A stretch of 64,000 nucleotides of DNA from an uncultured Verrucomicrobiota bacterium (GCA_964489425.1 CAZAYP010000004.1:24956-88955), one strand, 5' to 3'. Shown: positions 25,212-38,591, counted from the first letter of the stretch. Program-made: numbers and translations. Notes: generated by a model from the letters alone, not told the origin.

Positions 25212-26177
25212 ATGACTGAAAGCAAGCTGGTCTCCATCGTGGTCCCGTTCCTGAACGAGGAAGCCAATCTCCCGCTCTTGTACGACCGCCTCGTCGCGGC
25301 CCTGGGCCATGGTCCCGAGCGCCTGGAAATGCTTTTCGTGGACGATGGCAGCAGTGACGGATCCGTGCCGTGGCTCAAGGCGCGCGCGGCCGAGGATCCC
25401 CGGGTCAAGCTGCTGCGGCTGTCGCGGAACTTTGGCCACCAACTGGCGATCACGGCCGGGTTGGATTACGCCGGCGGCGACGCGGTAATCATCATGGACG
25501 CGGACCTGCAGGATCCGCCCGAGGTCACGCCTGAACTGCTGGCCCAGTGGCGCAACGGCTTCGAGATCGTTTACGCCGTGCGCCGGTCGCGCGAAGGCGA
25601 GACGTGGATCAAAAAAATGCTGGCCGCCGGCTTCTACCGGATCTTCCACCGGATCACCAAGGTCAACATGCCCATGAACGCCGGCGATTTCCGCCTGCTG
25701 GACCGGCGCGTGGTGCGGGCCATGCGCCAGGTGCGCGAGACGCACCGCTTCATGCGCGGCCTGACCTGCTGGACCGGGTTCGCGCAAACCGCAGTGCACT
25801 ATGACCGGGCCGCCCGGCACAGCGGGGTCACCAAGTACCCCACGTGGAAGTCCGCCCAGCTCGCCTGGGACGCGATCACTTCATTTTCCGGAACCCCGCT
25901 GCGTTGGGTCACGGGCCTGGGCATCCTCATCGCCTTGCTGGGCGTGGCCAAGGCGGTGGAGATCGTGGTGCAAAAGATTGTCAACCCGGACGGCTTCGTG
26001 GCCGGCTGGACCACCACGGTATGTTTTGTCCTGGTGATCGGCGGCCTGCAACTCCTGTGCCTCGGCCTGATCGGCCAGTACGTCAGCCGGGTTTTCGAGG
26101 AAACCAAGAAACGGCCGCTGTATTTTGTGCGCGAAACCGTTGGGGAGTTGAACGGTCCGCCGGATACGGGCTGGTAA
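25212..26177 (+). CDS. GT2 polyprenol-phosphate glycosyltransferase (ArnC/GtrB/dolichol-phosphate-mannose-synthase-like)
   Basis: VSIVVPFLNEE, DDGSSDGS, DADLQDPPE (DXD) motifs and two C-terminal TM helices, the usual GtrB/ArnC topology. Confidence 0.85.
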   Translation: MTESKLVSIVVPFLNEEANLPLLYDRLVAALGHGPERLEMLFVDDGSSDGSVPWLKARAAEDPRVKLLRLSRNFGHQLAITAGLDYAGGDAVIIMDADLQDPPEVTPELLAQWRNGFEIVYAVRRSREGETWIKKMLAAGFYRIFHRITKVNMPMNAGDFRLLDRRVVRAMRQVRETHRFMRGLTCWTGFAQTAVHYDRAARHSGVTKYPTWKSAQLAWDAITSFSGTPLRWVTGLGILIALLGVAKAVEIVVQKIVNPDGFVAGWTTTVCFVLVIGGLQLLCLGLIGQYVSRVFEETKKRPLYFVRETVGELNGPPDTGW

Positions 26178-26224
26178 GGCCCGCGAAACACAAGCGCTCG
26201 ACTCAGAGCCAACAGGAGATGCCC

Positions 26225-27451
26225 ATGAAGCGCGGGTTGATGACGTGGGGGTTGTGCAGCTTGGCCGCGCTGCCGTTGCGCGCGCAGGATACCAACGTGG
26301 CGGTGTTGCCCAACGCCGTGGCCGCGGAGACGCAGGTGAGCGAGTCGCTGCAGCGCGAGGCGCTGGCGGCGGTGGACCGGGGCATCGCCTGGCTGATCGC
26401 CAAGCAGGACCCGGCGGGATACTGGTCCAACGCCGAGTTCCCGGCCTTGACCGCCCTGCCCCTCTGGGCGCTGCTCAAGGCCCATGCCGGCGACAGCAAC
26501 CGCATCCAGCAAGCCGTGGGCGTGCTCCTGTCCTGTGCGCACACCAACGGCGCCATCTTCCGCGAGCCCACCGCGGCCCGCAAGGGCGGCGGCTTGCCCA
26601 ACTACAACACGGCGGTATGCATGGTGGCGCTGAACGCCACGGGCGACCCGGCGCTTGCGCCCGTGATCCGCGCCGCGCGCGCGTACCTGGCGCGCAGCCA
26701 GCTCATCAGCGATACCGTATACAGCGGCGGCATGGGGTATGACCCCGAGACCGGCCGCGACTACACGGACCTCTCCAACTCCTACATGGCGTATGAAGCC
26801 ATGCGCCTGACCGGCAACGTGGACCAGGATCAACCCGCCGCGGAGCGCCATGACCTTAATTGGGAAGCCGCCCGCGGCTTTATCCAGCGCACGCAGAATG
26901 ACCCGGACTTCAACAAACAGGCCTGGGTATCCGACGACCCCGCCGAGAAGGGCGGCTTCGTGTACCACCCCGAGCAGACCCGGTCCGGCGCCTACACCAA
27001 TGCGGACGGGGTGGTCAAGTTTCGCTCCATGCGCGGCATGACCTATGCCGGGCTGCTCAGCTACATTTACGCCGAGGTCCAGCGGGATGACCCGCGCATT
27101 CAGGCCACGATCCGGTGGATCGTGGATCACTGGACCCTGGACGCCAACAACCGCGCCGGCGCCGACTCCATGACCGCGGACGACAAGGAAGGCCTGTACT
27201 ACCTCTATAACGTCATGGCCAAGGGCATGGCCGCCTACGGCCAGGACGTGTTCACCGCGCGCGACGGCCGCGCGTTCAACTGGCGCGTGGAACTGATCGA
27301 ACGGTTGCTGGCGTTGCAGAAAATCGACGATCAGGGCCGCGGTTACTGGGTGAACGAGGTCAGCCGTTACTGGGAAGGCGACCCTGTGCTGGTCACGGCC
27401 TATTCCCTCCTGGCGCTGGAAGTGGCGCTGCAGGACACGCCGTCACGGTAG
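26225..27451 (+). CDS. Secreted prenyltransferase/squalene-oxidase-repeat (terpenoid-cyclase-like alpha/alpha toroid) protein
   Basis: Signal peptide MKRGLMTWGLCSLAALPLRA. Repeated QW-like aromatic motifs (GYW, GGF, GYWVN). The ORF-track start at 25844 adds an implausible N-terminus. Confidence 0.5.
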   Translation: MKRGLMTWGLCSLAALPLRAQDTNVAVLPNAVAAETQVSESLQREALAAVDRGIAWLIAKQDPAGYWSNAEFPALTALPLWALLKAHAGDSNRIQQAVGVLLSCAHTNGAIFREPTAARKGGGLPNYNTAVCMVALNATGDPALAPVIRAARAYLARSQLISDTVYSGGMGYDPETGRDYTDLSNSYMAYEAMRLTGNVDQDQPAAERHDLNWEAARGFIQRTQNDPDFNKQAWVSDDPAEKGGFVYHPEQTRSGAYTNADGVVKFRSMRGMTYAGLLSYIYAEVQRDDPRIQATIRWIVDHWTLDANNRAGADSMTADDKEGLYYLYNVMAKGMAAYGQDVFTARDGRAFNWRVELIERLLALQKIDDQGRGYWVNEVSRYWEGDPVLVTAYSLLALEVALQDTPSR

Positions 27452-30594: not shown

Positions 30595-33500
30595 CTACTT
30601 GGCCGGGACCAGTTCCCGTTCGCGGACCCGGAAGAACATGGCCGGCACCGCTTCGTCCACCAGGATCGTCAGGGACATGGGCCCATCCTGGCCTTGGATG
30701 TACTGGGCGTCGGGATGCACGCGCCACGGTCCGGTCACGGCTTCGGCCACATGAATGGAGAACTCCTTGCCTGCGCTGCCATCCCAGCTGACCGTGATGC
30801 CCACGGTTCCTTCCGCCCCGACCTGGCCCTTGGGTAACGCCGCGCTATCGCGGGCCCCGATGCCCAGGCCCGTGATGACCGGCGACGCCAAACGGGACTC
30901 GGGCGCCAGCACCACCAAGTTGACCGCCGGGCTCCAGTAGCTCAGGTTGGTGGTCGCCATATCCCAGACCCGCACCCGGATGGACACGTCGTTGTACCAC
31001 GTGTTGGTGACCACGGCATTGGTCAACCCGTCCTCCGTGACCCAGTCATAGCCGGGCACCGTGATGTCCTTGCTTTGGTACTCAAAGACGTAGGGCCCCG
31101 TGCCGCCAACCGGGGTCGCGGTGACGACCACGGGGTTGCCAAACGAGACCTGGTTGGTGTTGAGCGCCAGCGAAACACTCACCGGAGGATCCAGCACGCT
31201 GAGCACGGCGACCGCACTCCACTCGCTGATCACGCTGTTGGCATCGATCACCCGGGCGCGATACTCCACGCCCGACAACCATTGATTGGTCGTAACCGCA
31301 CTGACAATCGGCGAAGAACTCCAGGCGACCGCGCCCGTGGCGCGCGTCTCGAATTGGAACACGTAAGGCTCGACCGTATTGGAGACGGTTGCGCTCAACA
31401 CGCTGCTGGCGCCATACACAACCTGGGTTGGGCTGAACGCCAGGCTTACCGCAGGCTGGAGCACGGTCAGGGTTGCGGCCGCCCAGGCGCTGGTCGCGTT
31501 GAAACTGTCCACCACGCGCACGCGGTATTCCAGGTTCGAGCGCCACGCATACGTCGTCACCGGCGATGTGACGCCCGCCACTACCCAGCTGCCCGCGCCG
31601 CCCCAACGATATTCATAGCTGTACCGGTACGGAGCCGTGCCGTTCGTGGCCGTGGCGGTCATCACAGAATTCGACCCGCGGATGACCGTGGTCGGATTGA
31701 ACTCCAGCGTGGCCGAAATCGCCGAGGGCATCACGGTCAACGTGGCCGCGGCGCTCCAATCGCTGGTGATGGTGTTCGCGTCCACGCTGCGGGCCCGGTA
31801 CTGCACCGTGGCCGGCCACACGTTCGTGAGGGCATCGCCGGACCCAACCACGTTGGTCCACCCGGTCAGCAGGTTGGTCGTCAGATTCTGCTGCCACTGG
31901 AAGGTCACCGGCAGGGTCACGTTCGTGGCCAGGGCGCTCACCACGCTGGACTGGCTTTGGGTTATCACGCTGGGAGCGAAAGCCACCGACACCGCCGGCT
32001 GCAGCACCGTCAACGTAGCCGCGGCCCACGCGCTGGTCGCATTGAAGCTGTCCACGGCCCGCACCCGGTATTCCAAGTTCGAGTACCATGCGTAGGTCGT
32101 CACCGCCGAGGTGATACTCGCCGAGTTCCAAGTGCCGGTGCCGCCCCAACGGTACTGATAGCTGTACCGGTATGGCGCGGTGCCGCTCGTGGCTGACGCC
32201 GTCATCACCGTGTTGGATCCCCGGATGATCGTGGTTGGGTTGAACTCCAGGCTGGCCGCAATCTCCGAAGGCAGCACGGTCAGGGTCGCGGCATCGCTCC
32301 AGCCGCTCGTCAGGCTGTTGGCGTCCACGCTGCGCGCGCGGTACTGGATCGTGGCCGGCCAGACGTTGGTGATGGCCGACCCACTGTCGGCCACGTTGGC
32401 CCACCCGCTCCCCGAGTTCTGCTGCCACTCGAAGGTCACCGGCTCGATCGTGTTCGTCGCGGTCGCGCTGACCACGCTGGACCGGCTCTGCGCCACCGAG
32501 GCCGGGCTGAACGCCACGGTCACCGACGGTTGCCGGACCACGAGCGCGGCCGTGGCCCACGCGCTAGCGCCGAAACTGTCCATGACCTGTACACGGTACT
32601 CCACGTTGGACGCCCAGGCGTTCGTGGTCACCGCGGCAGTCATGCCGGCCGCCTCGGTCCAGCCTTCCGAGTCATAACGGTACTCGTAGCTGAAGGTGTA
32701 GGGCGCCATGCCGTTGGTGGCCGTCGCCGTCAGCACGCAGTTTGAACCCCGGTTGACACTCAGCGGGTTGAAGGTGAGCGTGGCGGAAATCGCCGACGGC
32801 AAGATCGTCAGGTTGGCGGCCGCGCTCCACTCGCTGGTCACGCTGTTGGCGTCAATCGTGCGCGCCCGGCACGCCACGTTGGTGGGCCAGATGTTGGTGA
32901 TGGTGGACCCGCTGCCGCTGACATCGGTCCACCCGGGCCCGTAGTTCTGCTGCCACTCGTAGTTCACGGGCAGGGTCGCGTTGGTCACCACCGCGCTGGC
33001 CACGCTCGAGTAGCACTGGGTCACCGCGACCGGGCTGAACGAGACCGTCACCAGCGGCTGGCGCACCATCACCCCGACCGAGCTCCAGGCGCTGGTGGCG
33101 TTGAAGGTGTCCACCGCCTGCACGCGCAACTCCACGTTGGACGTCCAGGCGTTGGTGTTGATCTGCCCGCCCATCCACGCCGCCGTGGCCCACTCGCCGC
33201 CCTCGTGGCGGTACTCGTAATTGTAGGTGTAAGGCGCCATGCCGTTGGTGGCCGAGGCGGTCGAGACGCTGTTGGAGGTTCCCCGGACATAGTTGGTGGG
33301 GTTGCGGGTCAGGGCCACGGAGATGATCGACGGCATGACCGTCAGGGTCGCGGCCGCGCTCCACTCGCTGGTGATGCTGTTGGCGTCAATCGTGCGCGCC
33401 CGGTAATCCACGGTGTTGGGCCAGAAGTTGGTGATCTGCCGGGCGCTGCTGGCCACGTTGCTCCAGCCGCCGCCGCTGTCCTCCTGCCACTCGTAGGTCG

Positions 33501-36500
33501 CCGGCAAGGTGGCGTTGGTCAGCACCGCGCTGACTACGCTGACCCGACTCTGGGTCACCACCGACGGGCTGAACGAGACCGTCACCAACGGCTGGCGTAC
33601 CATCACGCCCACCGCGGTCCAGGCGCTGGTCGCGTTGAAGGTGTCCACCGCCTGCACGCGCAGCTCCACGTTGGACGTCCAGGCGTTGGTGTTGATCTGC
33701 CCGCTCATCCATGGCGCCGAGGTCCAGGATCCGCCCTCGTAGCGGTACTCGTAACTGTAGGTATAAGGCGCCATGCCGTTGGTGGCCGAGGCCGTCGAGA
33801 CACTGTTGGAAGCCCCGCGGATGTAGTTGGTGGGATTGCGGGTCAGGGCCACGGAGATGATCGACGGCATGACCGTCAGGGTCGCGGCCGCGCTCCACTC
33901 GCTGGTGATGCTGTTGGCGTCAATCGTGCGCGCCCGGTAATCCACGGTGTTGGGCCAGAAGTTGGTGATCTGCCGGGCGCTGCTGGCCACGTTGCTCCAG
34001 CCGCCGCCGCTGTCCTCCTGCCACTCGTAGGTCACCGGCGCGGTGGTGTTGGTCGCGTTCGCGCTGACCACGCTGACCCGGCTCTGGGTCACCACCGACG
34101 GGCTGAACGAGACCGTCAGCACGGGCTGGCGTGTGACCGTGGACGCCACGGTCCAGGCGCTGGTGGCGTTGAAACTGTCGACCACCTTCACCCGCAGCAT
34201 TACGTTGGAGAGCCAGGCGTTGGTGTGGATCCGGTCGTTCATCCCCGCCGCCGATGTCCAGGTATCGGTCCCATAGGTGTACTCGTAGTTGTAGGTGTAT
34301 GGCGCCATGCCTTTCGAGGCGGTGGCGGTCGAAATGCAGCTCACCCCGCGGACCGTGCTGGTGGAACTGAAAGCCAGGGCCACGGAGATGACCGAGGGCA
34401 TGACCGGCAGGGTCGCCACGGCGCTCCACTCGCTGGTGATGCTGTTGGCATCAATCGTGCGCGCCCGGTAGTCCACAGTGTTGGGCCAGAAGTTGGTGAT
34501 CTGCCGGGCGCTGCTGGCCACGTTGCTCCACCCGCCGCCGCTGTTCTCCTGCCACACGTAGGTCACAGGCAGGGAGGCATTGGTCACCACCGCGCTTGCC
34601 ACGCTGACCTGGCTCTGGGTCACGATCGATGGGCTGAAGGTGACCGTCACCAGCGGCTGGCGCACCTGCACGCCCACCGCGGTCCAGGCGCTGGTGGCGT
34701 TGAAGCTGTCCACCGCCTGCACGCGCAGTTCCACGTTGGACGGCCATGCGTTGGTGATGACCTGCCCGCTCATCCACGCCGCCGGGCTCCAAGATCCGCC
34801 CTCGTAGCGGTACTCGTAACTGTAGTTAAAAGGCGCCATGCCGTTGGTGGCCGAGGCGGTCGAGACGCTGTTGGAGGTTCCCCGGACATAGTTGGTGGGG
34901 TTGCGGGTCAGGGCCACGGAGATGATCGACGGCATGACCGTCAGGGTCGCGGCCGCGCTCCACTCGCTGGTGATGCTGTTGCCATCCACGGTGCGCGCCC
35001 GGTAATCTACTGAAGCCGGCCAGAAGTTGGTGATCTGCCGGCCGCTGTCCACCACGTTGGTCCAGCCGCCGCCCTCGTCCTTCTGCCACTCATACGTCAA
35101 CGGCGCCGTGGTATTTGACACCACCGCGCTGAGCACGCTGACCCGGCTCTGGGTCACCACCGACGGGCTGAACGCCACGATCACCCGCGGCTGGCGGATG
35201 CCCAGGGACGCCACGGTCCAGGCGCTGGTCGCGTTGAAACTGTCCACCACCTGTACGCGCAGTTCCGTGTTGGAGGCCCAGGCGTTGGTATGCACCCGGT
35301 CGGACATCCACGACGCCGAGGTCCAGGTGTCGGTTCCGTAACGATACGCATAACTGTAAGAATACGGCGCCATGCCGCTGCTGGCGGTGGCGGTCGAGAC
35401 GCTGTTGGAACCCCGCATCGTGTTGGTGGGGCTGAACACCAGGGCCACCGCAATCGCCGACGGCATAACGGTCAGCGTCGATGCGGCGCTCCATTCGCTG
35501 GTCACGTTGTTGGCGTCCACGCTGCGCGCCCGGTAGTCCACGGTGTTGGGCCAGAAATTGGTGATTTGCCGGGCGCTGCTGGCCACGTTGCTCCACCCGC
35601 CGCCGCTGTTCTCCTGCCACACGTAGGTCACCGGCAGGCTGGCGTTGGACACCACCGCGCTGACCACGCTCACCTGACTCTGGGTCACCACCGCCGGGCT
35701 GAACGAGACCGTCACCGCGGGCTGGATCACCGCCACCGCGGCCGTGGCCCAGGCGCTGGTCGAGCTGAAACTGTCCACCACCTGCACGCGGAGATCAACG
35801 TTGGAAGGCCAGGCGTTGGTTTGCACCCTGCCGCTCATCCAGGACGCCGCGGTCCACTCGCCGGCCCCATAGCGGTATTGGTAAACATAGGTGTACGGTG
35901 CGGTTCCGTTGGTCGCGGTGGCGGTCGAGACGCTGTTGGAGCCCCGCAGCATGTTGGTGGGGCTCGCCACGAGGGTGGCCGCGATTTCCGAGGGCATCAC
36001 CATCAGGGTGGCAGCCGTGCTCCAGTCGCTCGTGACGCGGTTGGCGTCCAGGCTGCGCGCCCGATATTGCACCGTGGCCGCCCAGGCATTCGAATAGGTC
36101 GCAACGCCTATGCCGGGCACCGCGGTCCACCCGCTCAGGGGGTTGGTGGTCGTGTTTTGCTGCCACTCGTACACCACCGGGGCCGTGACGTTCGCCACGC
36201 TGGCGCTGACCACGCTGTACTGGCTCTGGGTCACCACCGTCGGGCTGAAGGCCACGGTCACTTCCGGTTGGCGCACGGCCAGGAAAGCCGTGGCCCAAGC
36301 GCTGGTCGAGTTAAAGCTGTCGGCCACCCGTACGCGGTATTCCATGTTGGACCACACCACGAGCGTGTTCACCGCCGAGGTACTGCTCGCCGCGATCCAG
36401 CTGCCTTCGCCGCCCCAGCGATACTCGTAGCTGTAACGATACGGCGCGGTCCCGTTCGTGGGCGACGCCGTCAGTGTGCTGGAGGCGCCCCGCACTATGC

Positions 36501-38247
36501 TGGTTGGATTAAACACCAGGCTGGCGGCAATCTCGGAAGGCATCACGGTCAGGGTCGCCGCCGCGCTCCAGTCGCTGGTGATGCTGTTGGCATCGATGGT
36601 CCGCGCCCGGTAATCCACCGTGGCGGGCCACACGTTGGTCAGCGCCGACCCGGTCCCAGCCACGCTTGTCCACCCACTGCCCGTGTTCTGTTGCCATTGG
36701 TAGGTCACGGGCAAGGTAGCATTCGACACCACCGCGCTCGCCACGCTGGACTGGCTCTGCGTCACGACCGACGGGCTGAACGCCACAGTTACCTCGGGTT
36801 GCCGAACGGTCAAGAACGCCATGGTCCAGGCGCTCGTCGCATTGAAACTGTCCGTTACCCGCACACGGTATTCCAAGTTGGAATACCAGGCATAGGTGGT
36901 CACCGCCGACGTCATGCTCGCCAAGCGCCACGTCCCCTCCCCGCCCCAGCGGTATTCATAGCGGTAGCGATACGGCGCCGTCCCGTTGGTGGGCACCGCG
37001 GTCATTGTGCTGGCCACCCCGCGCACCATGTTGCTGGGATTGAACGTCAGGGTCGCAGCGATCTCAGACGGCATCACCGTAAGCGTTGCCGCCGCGCTCC
37101 AGTCGCTCGTCACGCTGTTGGCGTCAATACTGCGCGCGCGTACGTCCACCGTGGATGCCCATGCGCTCGTGACGGCCGAGCCGCTGCCGGCTACCGTGGT
37201 CCATCCGCTGCCCGTATTCTGCTGCCACTGGAAGGCCACGGGCAAGGTGGCGTTGGAAACGGTCGCGCTGACCACGCTGAACTGGCTTTGGGTCACAACC
37301 TCCGGGCTGACCGCCACGGCCACCCCGGGTTGGCTCACTCTCAGGAACGCCGCTACCCACTGGCTGGTGGCCCCAAAAGTGTCGGTCACGCGCACCCGGT
37401 ATTCCAGATTAGACCACCAGGGATACGTCTTCACCGCCGTGGTAAAGCCCGCCGTGGTCCAGGTCCCGGTGCCATTCCATCGGTACGCATAACTGTACGT
37501 ATACGGCGGGGTTCCATTGGTCGCCACCGTGGTCAGCGAACTGGCCACCCCCCGCACCACGTTGCTCGGGATGAACTCCAGGGTCGCCGCGATCTCCGTG
37601 GGCAGCACGGTCAGGGTCGCCGCGGTGCTCCAACCGCTGGTCACGCTGTTCGCATCCACGCTGCGCGCACGCACATTCACCGTGACCGGCCACACGTTGG
37701 TGATATCCGACCCGCTCCCGACCACATTGGTCCACCCGACCGACGGGTTCGTCGTTGTGTTCTGTTGCCACTGGTAGGTCACCGGCAAGGTCACGTTCGT
37801 GGCCAGGGCGCTTGCCACGCTGGACTGGCCCTGCGTCACCACCGACGGGCTGAGCGTGACCGCCGCCCCCGGCTGGCGGACAATCAGGGTTGCCGCAGCG
37901 CTCCAGACGCTGGTCGCGCGGGCGCTGTCCACCACCCGCGCCCGGTATTGCCGGCTGGCTGGCCAGGCAAAGATATTGGTGGGACTGGTCATGCCGGAGG
38001 CGCCCCAGTTGGTTGCACCGGCGAGACGCGTCTGGTACTGGTACGTGTACGGAGCGGCGCCTCCGGACGGCACGGCAGTCAGCACCGTATTTGAACCGTT
38101 GATGATGATCAACGGATTGAAGCTAAGGGACACCGTTACGGCGGACACGGTGGTAGCCCACAGCGCAGATCCACAACACAGCGCCATGAGCACGGAGATG
38201 CTCCGTTGTGGACGCTTATTCACTGTGGAAACAATGTGCTTTTTCAT
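30595..38247 (-). CDS. Giant secreted repetitive protein. About 13 tandem copies of a roughly 178-aa unit made of two alternating roughly 90-aa beta-rich modules; probable surface adhesin or fibre.
   Basis: 2550 aa from the ATG at 38247, which has an AAGGAG RBS 8 nt upstream. Signal peptide present. See findings for the repeat consensus and the non-repetitive C-terminal domain. Confidence 0.85.
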   Translation of the reverse strand: MKKHIVSTVNKRPQRSISVLMALCCGSALWATTVSAVTVSLSFNPLIIINGSNTVLTAVPSGGAAPYTYQYQTRLAGATNWGASGMTSPTNIFAWPASRQYRARVVDSARATSVWSAAATLIVRQPGAAVTLSPSVVTQGQSSVASALATNVTLPVTYQWQQNTTTNPSVGWTNVVGSGSDITNVWPVTVNVRARSVDANSVTSGWSTAATLTVLPTEIAATLEFIPSNVVRGVASSLTTVATNGTPPYTYSYAYRWNGTGTWTTAGFTTAVKTYPWWSNLEYRVRVTDTFGATSQWVAAFLRVSQPGVAVAVSPEVVTQSQFSVVSATVSNATLPVAFQWQQNTGSGWTTVAGSGSAVTSAWASTVDVRARSIDANSVTSDWSAAATLTVMPSEIAATLTFNPSNMVRGVASTMTAVPTNGTAPYRYRYEYRWGGEGTWRLASMTSAVTTYAWYSNLEYRVRVTDSFNATSAWTMAFLTVRQPEVTVAFSPSVVTQSQSSVASAVVSNATLPVTYQWQQNTGSGWTSVAGTGSALTNVWPATVDYRARTIDANSITSDWSAAATLTVMPSEIAASLVFNPTSIVRGASSTLTASPTNGTAPYRYSYEYRWGGEGSWIAASSTSAVNTLVVWSNMEYRVRVADSFNSTSAWATAFLAVRQPEVTVAFSPTVVTQSQYSVVSASVANVTAPVVYEWQQNTTTNPLSGWTAVPGIGVATYSNAWAATVQYRARSLDANRVTSDWSTAATLMVMPSEIAATLVASPTNMLRGSNSVSTATATNGTAPYTYVYQYRYGAGEWTAASWMSGRVQTNAWPSNVDLRVQVVDSFSSTSAWATAAVAVIQPAVTVSFSPAVVTQSQVSVVSAVVSNASLPVTYVWQENSGGGWSNVASSARQITNFWPNTVDYRARSVDANNVTSEWSAASTLTVMPSAIAVALVFSPTNTMRGSNSVSTATASSGMAPYSYSYAYRYGTDTWTSASWMSDRVHTNAWASNTELRVQVVDSFNATSAWTVASLGIRQPRVIVAFSPSVVTQSRVSVLSAVVSNTTAPLTYEWQKDEGGGWTNVVDSGRQITNFWPASVDYRARTVDGNSITSEWSAAATLTVMPSIISVALTRNPTNYVRGTSNSVSTASATNGMAPFNYSYEYRYEGGSWSPAAWMSGQVITNAWPSNVELRVQAVDSFNATSAWTAVGVQVRQPLVTVTFSPSIVTQSQVSVASAVVTNASLPVTYVWQENSGGGWSNVASSARQITNFWPNTVDYRARTIDANSITSEWSAVATLPVMPSVISVALAFSSTSTVRGVSCISTATASKGMAPYTYNYEYTYGTDTWTSAAGMNDRIHTNAWLSNVMLRVKVVDSFNATSAWTVASTVTRQPVLTVSFSPSVVTQSRVSVVSANATNTTAPVTYEWQEDSGGGWSNVASSARQITNFWPNTVDYRARTIDANSITSEWSAAATLTVMPSIISVALTRNPTNYIRGASNSVSTASATNGMAPYTYSYEYRYEGGSWTSAPWMSGQINTNAWTSNVELRVQAVDTFNATSAWTAVGVMVRQPLVTVSFSPSVVTQSRVSVVSAVLTNATLPATYEWQEDSGGGWSNVASSARQITNFWPNTVDYRARTIDANSITSEWSAAATLTVMPSIISVALTRNPTNYVRGTSNSVSTASATNGMAPYTYNYEYRHEGGEWATAAWMGGQINTNAWTSNVELRVQAVDTFNATSAWSSVGVMVRQPLVTVSFSPVAVTQCYSSVASAVVTNATLPVNYEWQQNYGPGWTDVSGSGSTITNIWPTNVACRARTIDANSVTSEWSAAANLTILPSAISATLTFNPLSVNRGSNCVLTATATNGMAPYTFSYEYRYDSEGWTEAAGMTAAVTTNAWASNVEYRVQVMDSFGASAWATAALVVRQPSVTVAFSPASVAQSRSSVVSATATNTIEPVTFEWQQNSGSGWANVADSGSAITNVWPATIQYRARSVDANSLTSGWSDAATLTVLPSEIAASLEFNPTTIIRGSNTVMTASATSGTAPYRYSYQYRWGGTGTWNSASITSAVTTYAWYSNLEYRVRAVDSFNATSAWAAATLTVLQPAVSVAFAPSVITQSQSSVVSALATNVTLPVTFQWQQNLTTNLLTGWTNVVGSGDALTNVWPATVQYRARSVDANTITSDWSAAATLTVMPSAISATLEFNPTTVIRGSNSVMTATATNGTAPYRYSYEYRWGGAGSWVVAGVTSPVTTYAWRSNLEYRVRVVDSFNATSAWAAATLTVLQPAVSLAFSPTQVVYGASSVLSATVSNTVEPYVFQFETRATGAVAWSSSPIVSAVTTNQWLSGVEYRARVIDANSVISEWSAVAVLSVLDPPVSVSLALNTNQVSFGNPVVVTATPVGGTGPYVFEYQSKDITVPGYDWVTEDGLTNAVVTNTWYNDVSIRVRVWDMATTNLSYWSPAVNLVVLAPESRLASPVITGLGIGARDSAALPKGQVGAEGTVGITVSWDGSAGKEFSIHVAEAVTGPWRVHPDAQYIQGQDGPMSLTILVDEAVPAMFFRVRERELVPAK
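30900..38100 (-). repeat. Intragenic tandem repeat array with a period of about 534 bp; central copies near-identical
   Basis: Alternative-frame ORFs 32852..33364, 33386..33898 and 33920..34429 (each offset by exactly 534 bp) encode almost identical peptides. Copies 34451.. and 35090.. are slightly diverged. Confidence 0.8.
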
Positions 38248-38591
38248 GCCCCGCTCCTTGCTAAACACCACGTTGCGTACTGCTTAAAATCGATATGCTG
38301 CTCAAGATGATCAATATACCCAAAAGGGAGGCTAAAGTTAAAATTGCAGGACCACTTTTTCATGAGATCAATACTACTCTTAAAATCGGCCAAAACTCAG
38401 CTAAATCAAGTAATTCGCCGATCTATAGACTAAAAGGTGCTTGTTCCCTGTATTTCTCACGACCAACCATCGCCATCAGCATAGCCGGCGGCCCGGGGGA
38501 AAAATGCCCCAAAGTCGTTATTTTGAAATATCTTATTTAACTGTTCAACAACAGGTTGTGGAACGGCATCTGCACTTTCGCTTCAACCGAC

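Follow-up and report, generated by a model that had tools for sequence, protein, structure and literature searches.

The closest described counterparts of the gene considered here are the Periscope Proteins, which are single-chain surface proteins in which repeats that are highly similar at the DNA level give rise to intragenic recombination and to variation in length (PMC8201768, PMC9704523). Examples include the E-G5 repeats of SasG/Aap, Rib, the SHIRT repeats of Sgo_0707, CdrA, and the BIg arrays of intimin and invasin (Whelan et al. 2021, PMC8201768; reviewed in PMC9704523). The class is defined by a tandem-repeat identity of at least 80% as computed by T-REKS, length variation is judged among clusters of proteins that are at least 90% identical, and the proteins are said to break the rule that adjacent domains diverge (PMC8201768). 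The present work concerns a giant gene (30595-38247, minus strand; 2550 codons plus a stop codon at 30595-30597) in a 64,000-nucleotide stretch of DNA from an uncultured Verrucomicrobiota bacterium (GCA_964489425.1, CAZAYP010000004.1:24956-88955; the whole 64-kb stretch is called the window below, and positions are counted from its first letter). The gene encodes 13 tandem units, U1 to U13 from the N-terminus, each with an A half followed by a B half. The best explanation of the evidence as a whole, to which a probability of roughly 70% may be attached, is that the units of the central block have recently swapped patches of DNA by intragenic homologous recombination, while the units at the edges have diverged.

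The window protein is like the Periscope Proteins in being a secreted single chain with a stalk of tandem folded domains of more than 50 residues, in having DNA-similar repeats that are substrates for in-frame recombination, and in belonging to a family in which the number of repeats varies (10-18); like SasG/Aap, it has a repeat unit in which two domain types alternate. It differs from the Periscope Proteins in that its adjacent whole units are 53-78% identical in protein sequence, patchily so and below 80%, a range obtained by comparing the units and not by T-REKS. The best adjacent pairs are U9-U10 (78%) and U8-U9 (75%), and values above 80% are found only for U7-U9 (87%, not adjacent) and for the half units B8-B9 (92%) and A9-A10 (88%). 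The window protein also keeps the rule of adjacent-domain divergence that the Periscope Proteins are said to break, since its physically adjacent domains are 26-44% identical, while domains of the same type one unit apart are up to 88-92% identical. It has no recognisable adhesive head or anchor, and its host is an uncultured environmental member of the Verrucomicrobiota, not a pathogen.

Giant surface proteins with immunoglobulin-like (Ig-like) repeats are also found among the fibrillar adhesins, for example SiiE and GhpA of Aureispira (Monzon et al. 2021, PMC8286594). The window protein shares with these its great length, a signal peptide (predicted), and a composition that is almost wholly tandem Ig-like stalk domains; it differs in having no known adhesive domain, no anchor or secretion domain of the type I, type V or type IX secretion systems (T1SS, T5SS, T9SS), of sortase or of PEP-CTERM, and no stalk match in Pfam. 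Its domains have the same fold as the Pfam domains Ig_7 (PF19081) and Ig_3 (PF13927) of giant Bacteroidota-type surface proteins, to which they are linked via the unit profile. Unlike those proteins, it falls under every Pfam threshold, and it has a fixed A-B period of 177 amino acids and a C-terminus of the form ...GFFRI.E that is found in about eight proteins. Tandem arrays in general are subject to concerted evolution, for which models of unequal crossover and gene conversion give a homogenised centre, diverged ends and units that cluster by lineage. The window array shows the same homogenised centre, diverged ends and clustering by lineage, and it departs from classical concerted evolution in that homogenisation is incomplete, involving 6 of the 13 units. 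Because the array is protein-coding, all of the events must stay in frame.

The case is one of ordinary tandem-repeat evolution, with recombination ongoing or recent in a giant secreted protein made of an Ig-like array. The finding opens no long-standing question and is of modest biological value: many giant surface proteins with Ig repeats evolve by recombination within the gene, and they are joined here by an uncharacterised family from the Verrucomicrobiota. The alternating two-domain unit combines high identity at a period of two domains with low identity between neighbouring domains, and the alternation may be a design that tolerates homogenisation of the DNA without misfolding of adjacent domains. 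A tentative suggestion, which is possible although the odds are against it, is that this Pfam-invisible family is an environmental counterpart of the Periscope Proteins, in which a surface rod of variable length has an A-B design with adjacent domains below about 45% identity, and in which the window array would now be polymorphic in unit number within its population. If this were true, the didomain design would allow homogenisation and the gain or loss of units at the 534-bp period while misfolding is avoided.

Repeat identity and mosaic structure of the central units

The interval 32300-35650, which an earlier note on this DNA had described as a recent expansion of near-identical 534-bp repeats by unequal crossing-over, falls within the giant minus-strand open reading frame (ORF). 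The periodicity of 534 bp that the note reported is real: the tandem array spans 31201-38136 within this one ORF, and its 13 units each have a length of 176-182 amino acids or 528-546 bp (mostly 531 or 534 bp) and contain two Ig-like domains of about 88 amino acids. The unit boundaries were set by motif anchors and confirmed with a hidden Markov model (HMM) of the unit. The central, partly homogenised units U5-U10 occupy 32803-35997 on the minus strand (U5, 35467-35997; U6, 34936-35466; U7, 34402-34935; U8, 33871-34401; U9, 33337-33870; U10, 32803-33336).

When whole units are compared in the register of the protein domains, U5-U10 are 72-90% identical in DNA. U7-U9 is the closest pair at 90%, U8-U9, U9-U10 and U7-U10 are each at 84%, and U5 and U6 are at 72-79% to the other central units. 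Pairs that include an outer unit are 56-73% identical, and the central units are thus more alike than the outer ones, as the note had held; the two motifs that it quoted from the protein, PYTYQYQTRL and APYRYSYEYRWGG, both occur there. The adjacent 534-bp pair in the best register (33031-33564 versus 33565-34098) is 92.5% identical, and identities of half units reach 90-91% among A7, A9 and A10, 95% for B8 and B9, and 86-90% among B5, B7, B8 and B9. The near-identity is patchy, in that exact tracts are set in a background of about 75%. A direct repeat of 198 bp has its two copies at 33302-33499 (end of U9 and start of U10) and 33836-34033 (end of U8 and start of U9), offset by 534 bp; another of 152 bp lies at 33231-33382 (U9/U10 junction) and 34830-34981 (U6/U7 junction), offset by 1599 bp or three units; and a repeat of 65 bp at 35567-35631 has its partner at 34502-34566, offset by 1065 bp. 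Further exact tracts in the core measure 81 and 53 bp. What remains of the claim of near-identical repeats is therefore patches that are exact over as many as 198 bp and one pair at 92.5%, while the whole central units, at 72-90%, do not fit it.

The distribution of the matching stretches delimits the core. Stretches that have a partner of at least 90% identity over 100 nt are confined to 33027-35716. The gene contains 27 exact direct repeats of at least 25 nt, each with an offset divisible by 3. Of these, 25 lie in 32800-35720; the 64-kb window has no others outside the gene, and this clustering is far beyond chance. Tandem Repeats Finder made no call on the array (its longest period is 500), and the repeats were found by another repeat search and by scripts. 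The core is real, non-random and homogenised, yet the 534-bp copies of the array fall short of near-identity. The same distinction applies to the ORFs at 32852, 33386, 33920, 34451 and 35090 from which the repeats had been noticed. These ORFs exist and the first three are exactly 534 bp apart, but they are not antisense, since they lie on the gene's own (minus) strand in frame +2, and their peptides, which had been described as almost identical, are 69%, 69% and 52% identical.

Synonymous divergence (pS) is 5% between the B halves of U8 and U9, 11% between the A halves of U7 and U10, and 20% between the A halves of U7 and U9. It is 20-25% in the other central pairs, 50-65% in the outer units, and 0-5% inside the shared tracts. 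The gradient from centre to edge is therefore present at synonymous sites too, which argues for recent exchange or duplication of DNA, not protein constraint.

The tracts also form a mosaic. The A half of U9 is nearest to U7 and U10 (90-91%), while its last 160 nt or so are identical to U8; between U8 and U9, identity is 100% over these last 160 nt or so and 61-77% over the first half. U10 begins with about 90 nt that are 100% identical to U7, while its B half resembles that of no central unit. The A half is shared by U6 and U8, many matches occur at an offset of 1065 bp, and the block formed by U6 and U7 resembles the block formed by U8 and U9. The longest runs of concordant polymorphic sites comprise 64 sites for U8-U9, 50 for U7-U10, 31 for U5-U7 and 25 for U7-U8, and none of 5000 permutations of the columns of polymorphic sites reached them (P < 2e-4). 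The nearest neighbours differ between the A and B halves of a unit, which points to gene conversion together with an older block duplication, in preference to a simple expansion by whole units. The proposal of recent expansion by unequal crossing-over accordingly survives in part: the synonymous gradient and the significant mosaic tracts speak for it, while the patchiness is unlike that of a simple recent expansion of whole units.

Comparison with relatives of the protein gives information about the turnover of units over longer times. The specific family, as defined by the didomain period of 177 amino acids and the C-terminus, comprises about eight full-length proteins, and the seven others are 2008-3424 amino acids long with about 52% identity. 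A neighbour-joining tree was built from 106 units of eight proteins. In this tree a unit from any of the seven homologues groups with the units at the same position in other species, while W1-W12 of the window protein fall into a single clade that contains W5-W10 as a subclade. Only W13 joins the terminal units of the homologues. The clade of W1-W12 implies either homogenisation of the array or its independent expansion in this lineage. The window protein has 13 units, compared with 18, 15, 15, 15, 10 and 10 in homologues, and L004 likewise has 18. Between the homologue P0002 (18 units; L001 10001-20275) and its close relative P0004 (15 units), the difference is a block of three units, and within P0002 the units b8-10 and b11-13 are 74-82% identical in DNA, with an exact match of 71 bp at an offset of 1596. 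The duplication of blocks in this family is thereby directly attested. Since the longest exact repeat in the P0002 gene is this length of 71 bp, the window gene is the more recently homogenised of the two genes that were compared in DNA.

A sequence of events that would produce these patterns begins with the older duplication of a two-unit block, U6 and U7 or U8 and U9, at an offset of 1065 bp. Newer and patchy events of gene conversion or unequal crossover among U5-U10 would then have produced exact tracts as long as 198 bp, and the edge units, lying outside the exchange, would have been free to diverge. Every offset among the 27 exact repeats is divisible by 3, so that recombination between copies would gain or lose entire units without a shift of frame, and matches that are in register with both the codon and the unit length would in this way alter the length of the rod-like protein. 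The recombination is presumably of the RecA type, and the copy number may be polymorphic at the present day.

Alternative explanations and the assembly of the core

Several considerations limit the explanation preferred here. The window sequence was itself probably derived from short reads, as runs SRR12261224 and SRR12261227 contain it, and the exact tracts that are longer than a read could in part be artefacts of the consensus or of the assembly path. Protein, genome and metagenome collections yielded nothing closer than about 52% protein identity, so that an ongoing change in copy number stands as a proposal. The W1-W12 clade could equally stem from the independent expansion of a few ancestral units. 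Finally, Pfam, NCBIfam and the gene context gave no anchor, adhesive domain or conserved neighbourhood that would point to a specific cellular role.

The alternative that survives best, although it is unlikely, is that the mosaic and the exact tracts were made by a short-read assembler through path switching or smoothing of the consensus, in which case the true number, order or sequence of the units differs from that in the window. Short reads are unreliable for resolving repeats of this kind (PMC9704523, PMC8201768). At 198 and 152 bp, the longest exact tracts are at least as long as a typical short read or k-mer, so the number of units and the order of the junctions at about 33.0-35.7 kb rest on read pairs. 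The window PurH is also present on two short-read contigs in Logan (L007 and L008, from runs SRR12261224 and SRR12261227), which are 100% identical to the window over 6979 bp (L007, 1-6979) and 5603 bp (L008, 1-5603), from purH/tyrS into the giant gene. A match without single-nucleotide polymorphisms over 5.6-7 kb indicates that the organism is present in at least two public runs, and these perfect matches mean that the 5' 2.6 kb of the gene are independently verified. The two contigs are independent, one from each run, and stop at the same base, 35602; this lies 30 nt inside the 65-bp exact repeat at 35567-35631, where the graph must branch. Such a stop would fit a graph with k = 31 at a branching repeat, the value of k being suggested by the 30-nt overhang, and the halt of both contigs at the edge of the core makes the core a graph tangle for short reads. 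No short-read contig that enters the gene from the 3' side is on record for the queries used (the cysteine desulfurase with two starts, the methyltransferase, and a guessed partial product of 305 amino acids). The concern about short-read assembly that had been raised for this array was thus justified, given that two independent contigs halt exactly at the core edge; the number of units and the junctions at about 33.0-35.7 kb are not trustworthy without long reads or read-pair checks, and the length of the gene is provisional in comparisons across metagenome-assembled genomes (MAGs).

An artefact could, however, alter the copy number or the junctions; it would not create the entire pattern. 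The 7.65-kb ORF is intact and without frameshifts, and its units are regular at 528-546 bp. The overall differences between units, at 10-28%, are of a size that can normally be resolved, and the gradient from centre to edge reaches well past the exact tracts, to U5 and U6 at 72-79% identity to the other central units. The flank of 5.6-7.0 kb is reproduced at 100% by independent assemblies, and homologues that were assembled elsewhere show a like block duplication.

It is also improbable, and rather more so, that the core arose only by recent tandem duplication of whole 534-bp units, which then diverged by point mutation without any gene conversion. The offsets of 534, 1065 and 1599 bp and the two-unit periodicity by which U6 and U7 match U8 and U9 would suit unequal crossing-over of this kind, but the divergence is strongly non-uniform along the units (as in U8-U9), and halves of one unit have different closest relatives; even divergence after duplication could not give such a pattern, at the permutation P value given above.

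The possibility that purifying selection on the protein keeps the central units similar, with no recent exchange of DNA, is very remote. Motifs such as YRAR..DAN..TS.WS do recur in all of the units, as such selection would lead one to expect, but pS is 0-5% in the shared tracts compared with 50-60% in the outer units, exact identity over 198 nt covers all of the third positions, and the outer units, which have the same GC content at third codon positions (GC3), argue against codon usage alone giving a pS below 10%. Selection at the protein level was rejected as the source of the similarity on the basis of pS.

Programmed hypervariation of the Ig-like domains, by a diversity-generating retroelement (DGR) or by antigenic variation of the cassette type, is scarcely tenable: such systems often target surface Ig-like or lectin domains, and the differences between copies are patchy, but substitutions between unit pairs show no adenine bias (12 versus 12, 21 versus 18, and 16 versus 15 in three near-identical pairs), and this spectrum was the ground for rejecting a DGR-type mechanism, for which no systematic search for a reverse transcriptase was made. 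In the remainder of the window the unit HMM detects no silent cassettes, and no 25-mer is repeated outside the gene.

Domain architecture and relatives of the giant protein

The window protein is a chain of about 28 Ig-like beta-sandwich domains, as predicted from structural models, in which A and B types alternate. The proposed layout would consist of the 13 A-B didomain units (about 177 amino acids each), one extra A-type domain, a linker and a C-terminal domain. The N-terminus reads MKKHIV...ALWATTVSA, and a Sec signal peptide is predicted from the translation at residues 1-36 (38140-38247, minus strand), ending in ...TTVSA and followed by VTVSLSF. The N-termini of the homologues are equivalent, ending in A-x-A ahead of QTVSLSF, and the giant protein is accordingly predicted to be exported by Sec. 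A location at the cell surface and a role as a spacer or adhesin would be in keeping with such an architecture. On the minus strand, the outer N-terminal units occupy 35998-38136 (U1, 37606-38136; U2, 37075-37605; U3, 36544-37074; U4, 35998-36543) and the outer C-terminal units 31201-32802 (U11, 32275-32802; U12, 31732-32274; U13, 31201-31731), both as placed by the unit boundaries and the HMM.

Past the array lies the extra single Ig-like domain, an A-type half unit at 30904-31200 (minus strand), which is supported by a match of unit HMM positions 5-101 to 30880-31182 and by a beta-sandwich in an AlphaFold2 model of the last 300 amino acids. In this model the predicted local distance difference test score (pLDDT) falls below 50 at residues 199-226, which form a low-confidence linker of about 28 residues at about 30820-30903 (minus strand), and is 60-76 over the final domain. 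This final domain, of about 75 amino acids (30598-30819, minus strand), is a conserved beta-sandwich in the model and ends in ...FFRVRE. The C-termini of P0002-P0008 and of the window protein share such a beta-sandwich of about 75 amino acids, which ends in ...GFFRI(R)E and follows a low-complexity linker, and the motif W..G....I..A....W...P....FR..E is kept across the seven homologues. Pfam and NCBIfam contain no family for the C-terminal domain, and no recognised anchor motif is present in it; it may be a candidate for an uncharacterised attachment or sorting domain.

The two halves of the unit are themselves homologous (hhalign probability 99.8%, E 1.9e-28), and conserved motifs such as YRAR..DAN..TS.WS are present in every unit. 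An AlphaFold2 model of U9, computed from an alignment of 40 units, has a mean pLDDT of 94.6 and 14 strands that form two consecutive beta-sandwiches. When this model was compared with the PDB by Foldseek, it matched tandem Ig/FN3 pairs, many of them with a probability of 1.00; other matches were fragments of the Aureispira grappling-hook protein GhpA, Salmonella SiiE, the D00-D0 domains of intimin, and phage Hoc. A sequence profile gave weak matches to the Ig domains of phage decoration proteins. A search of the whole protein (the 2558-amino acid ORF product) against Pfam and NCBIfam at E <= 1 returned only two sub-threshold matches at the level of chance, and no Ig family.

Among the members of the specific family, those with a named source genome come from Verrucomicrobiota MAGs. 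A scan of genome contigs gave two loci at 44% identity, in MAGs labelled as uncultured Verrucomicrobiota, and a scan of metagenome contigs gave two loci at 49-56%. The unit profile, when searched against 1.84 billion representatives, matched 3571 proteins at E <= 1e-3. Four distant matches that were sampled are giant multi-repeat proteins with many Pfam Ig_7, Ig_3 and PKD domains, and the domain thus belongs, as a divergent member, to an Ig-like class that is very common.

A separate observation concerns the distribution of the differences between central units, which are spread almost evenly over the three codon positions (for example 30/27/29 for U8-U9), with a high ratio of nonsynonymous to synonymous divergence (pN/pS) of about 0.3-0.75. 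On this sequence evidence, the even spread and the high ratio suggest relaxed or diversifying selection on these domains.

Gene start, neighbourhood and other features of the window

The mechanical ORF call for the giant gene is 30595-38271, with a GTG start at 38271 that lies 8 codons upstream of the ATG at 38247. The product is identical over 2550 amino acids to a database protein (P0001), which places the likely true start at ATG 38247; a ribosome-binding site, AAGGAG at 38254-38259, lies 6 nt upstream of this codon. The GC content of the gene is 0.877 at third codon positions and 0.52 and 0.57 at first and second positions, and the coding frame is confirmed by this GC3 value and by the protein homologues. 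The intergenic region upstream of the gene is 320 bp long and contains a promoter-like site predicted by a consensus scan, which is sigma-70-like (TTAACT, 17 nt, TATATT; 38313-38341, minus strand).

On the opposite (plus) strand, long open frames run over the giant gene at 33205-35013 (602 amino acids), 35290-38094 (934 amino acids) and 31075-32196 (373 amino acids). These are most simply explained as shadow ORFs that result from 88% GC at third codon positions.

The neighbours of the giant gene in the window are housekeeping genes, namely purH, tyrS, rpsA, a class-V aminotransferase (an IscS-like cysteine desulfurase), a methyltransferase and smc, while those of P0002 are FG-GAP/Ig-like proteins and sugar-biosynthesis genes. 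Since the two sets differ, there is no synteny, and the neighbourhood provides no functional clue. A tRNA scan found no tRNA genes in the 64-kb window, and no Rfam family reached its gathering threshold there. Elsewhere in the window, a candidate plus-strand ORF of 535 amino acids at 25844-27451, which overlaps an equally tentative minus-strand ORF of 443 amino acids, has a weak, sub-threshold match to the C-terminal repeat of squalene-hopene cyclase (E 3.4e-05, under the Pfam cut-off).

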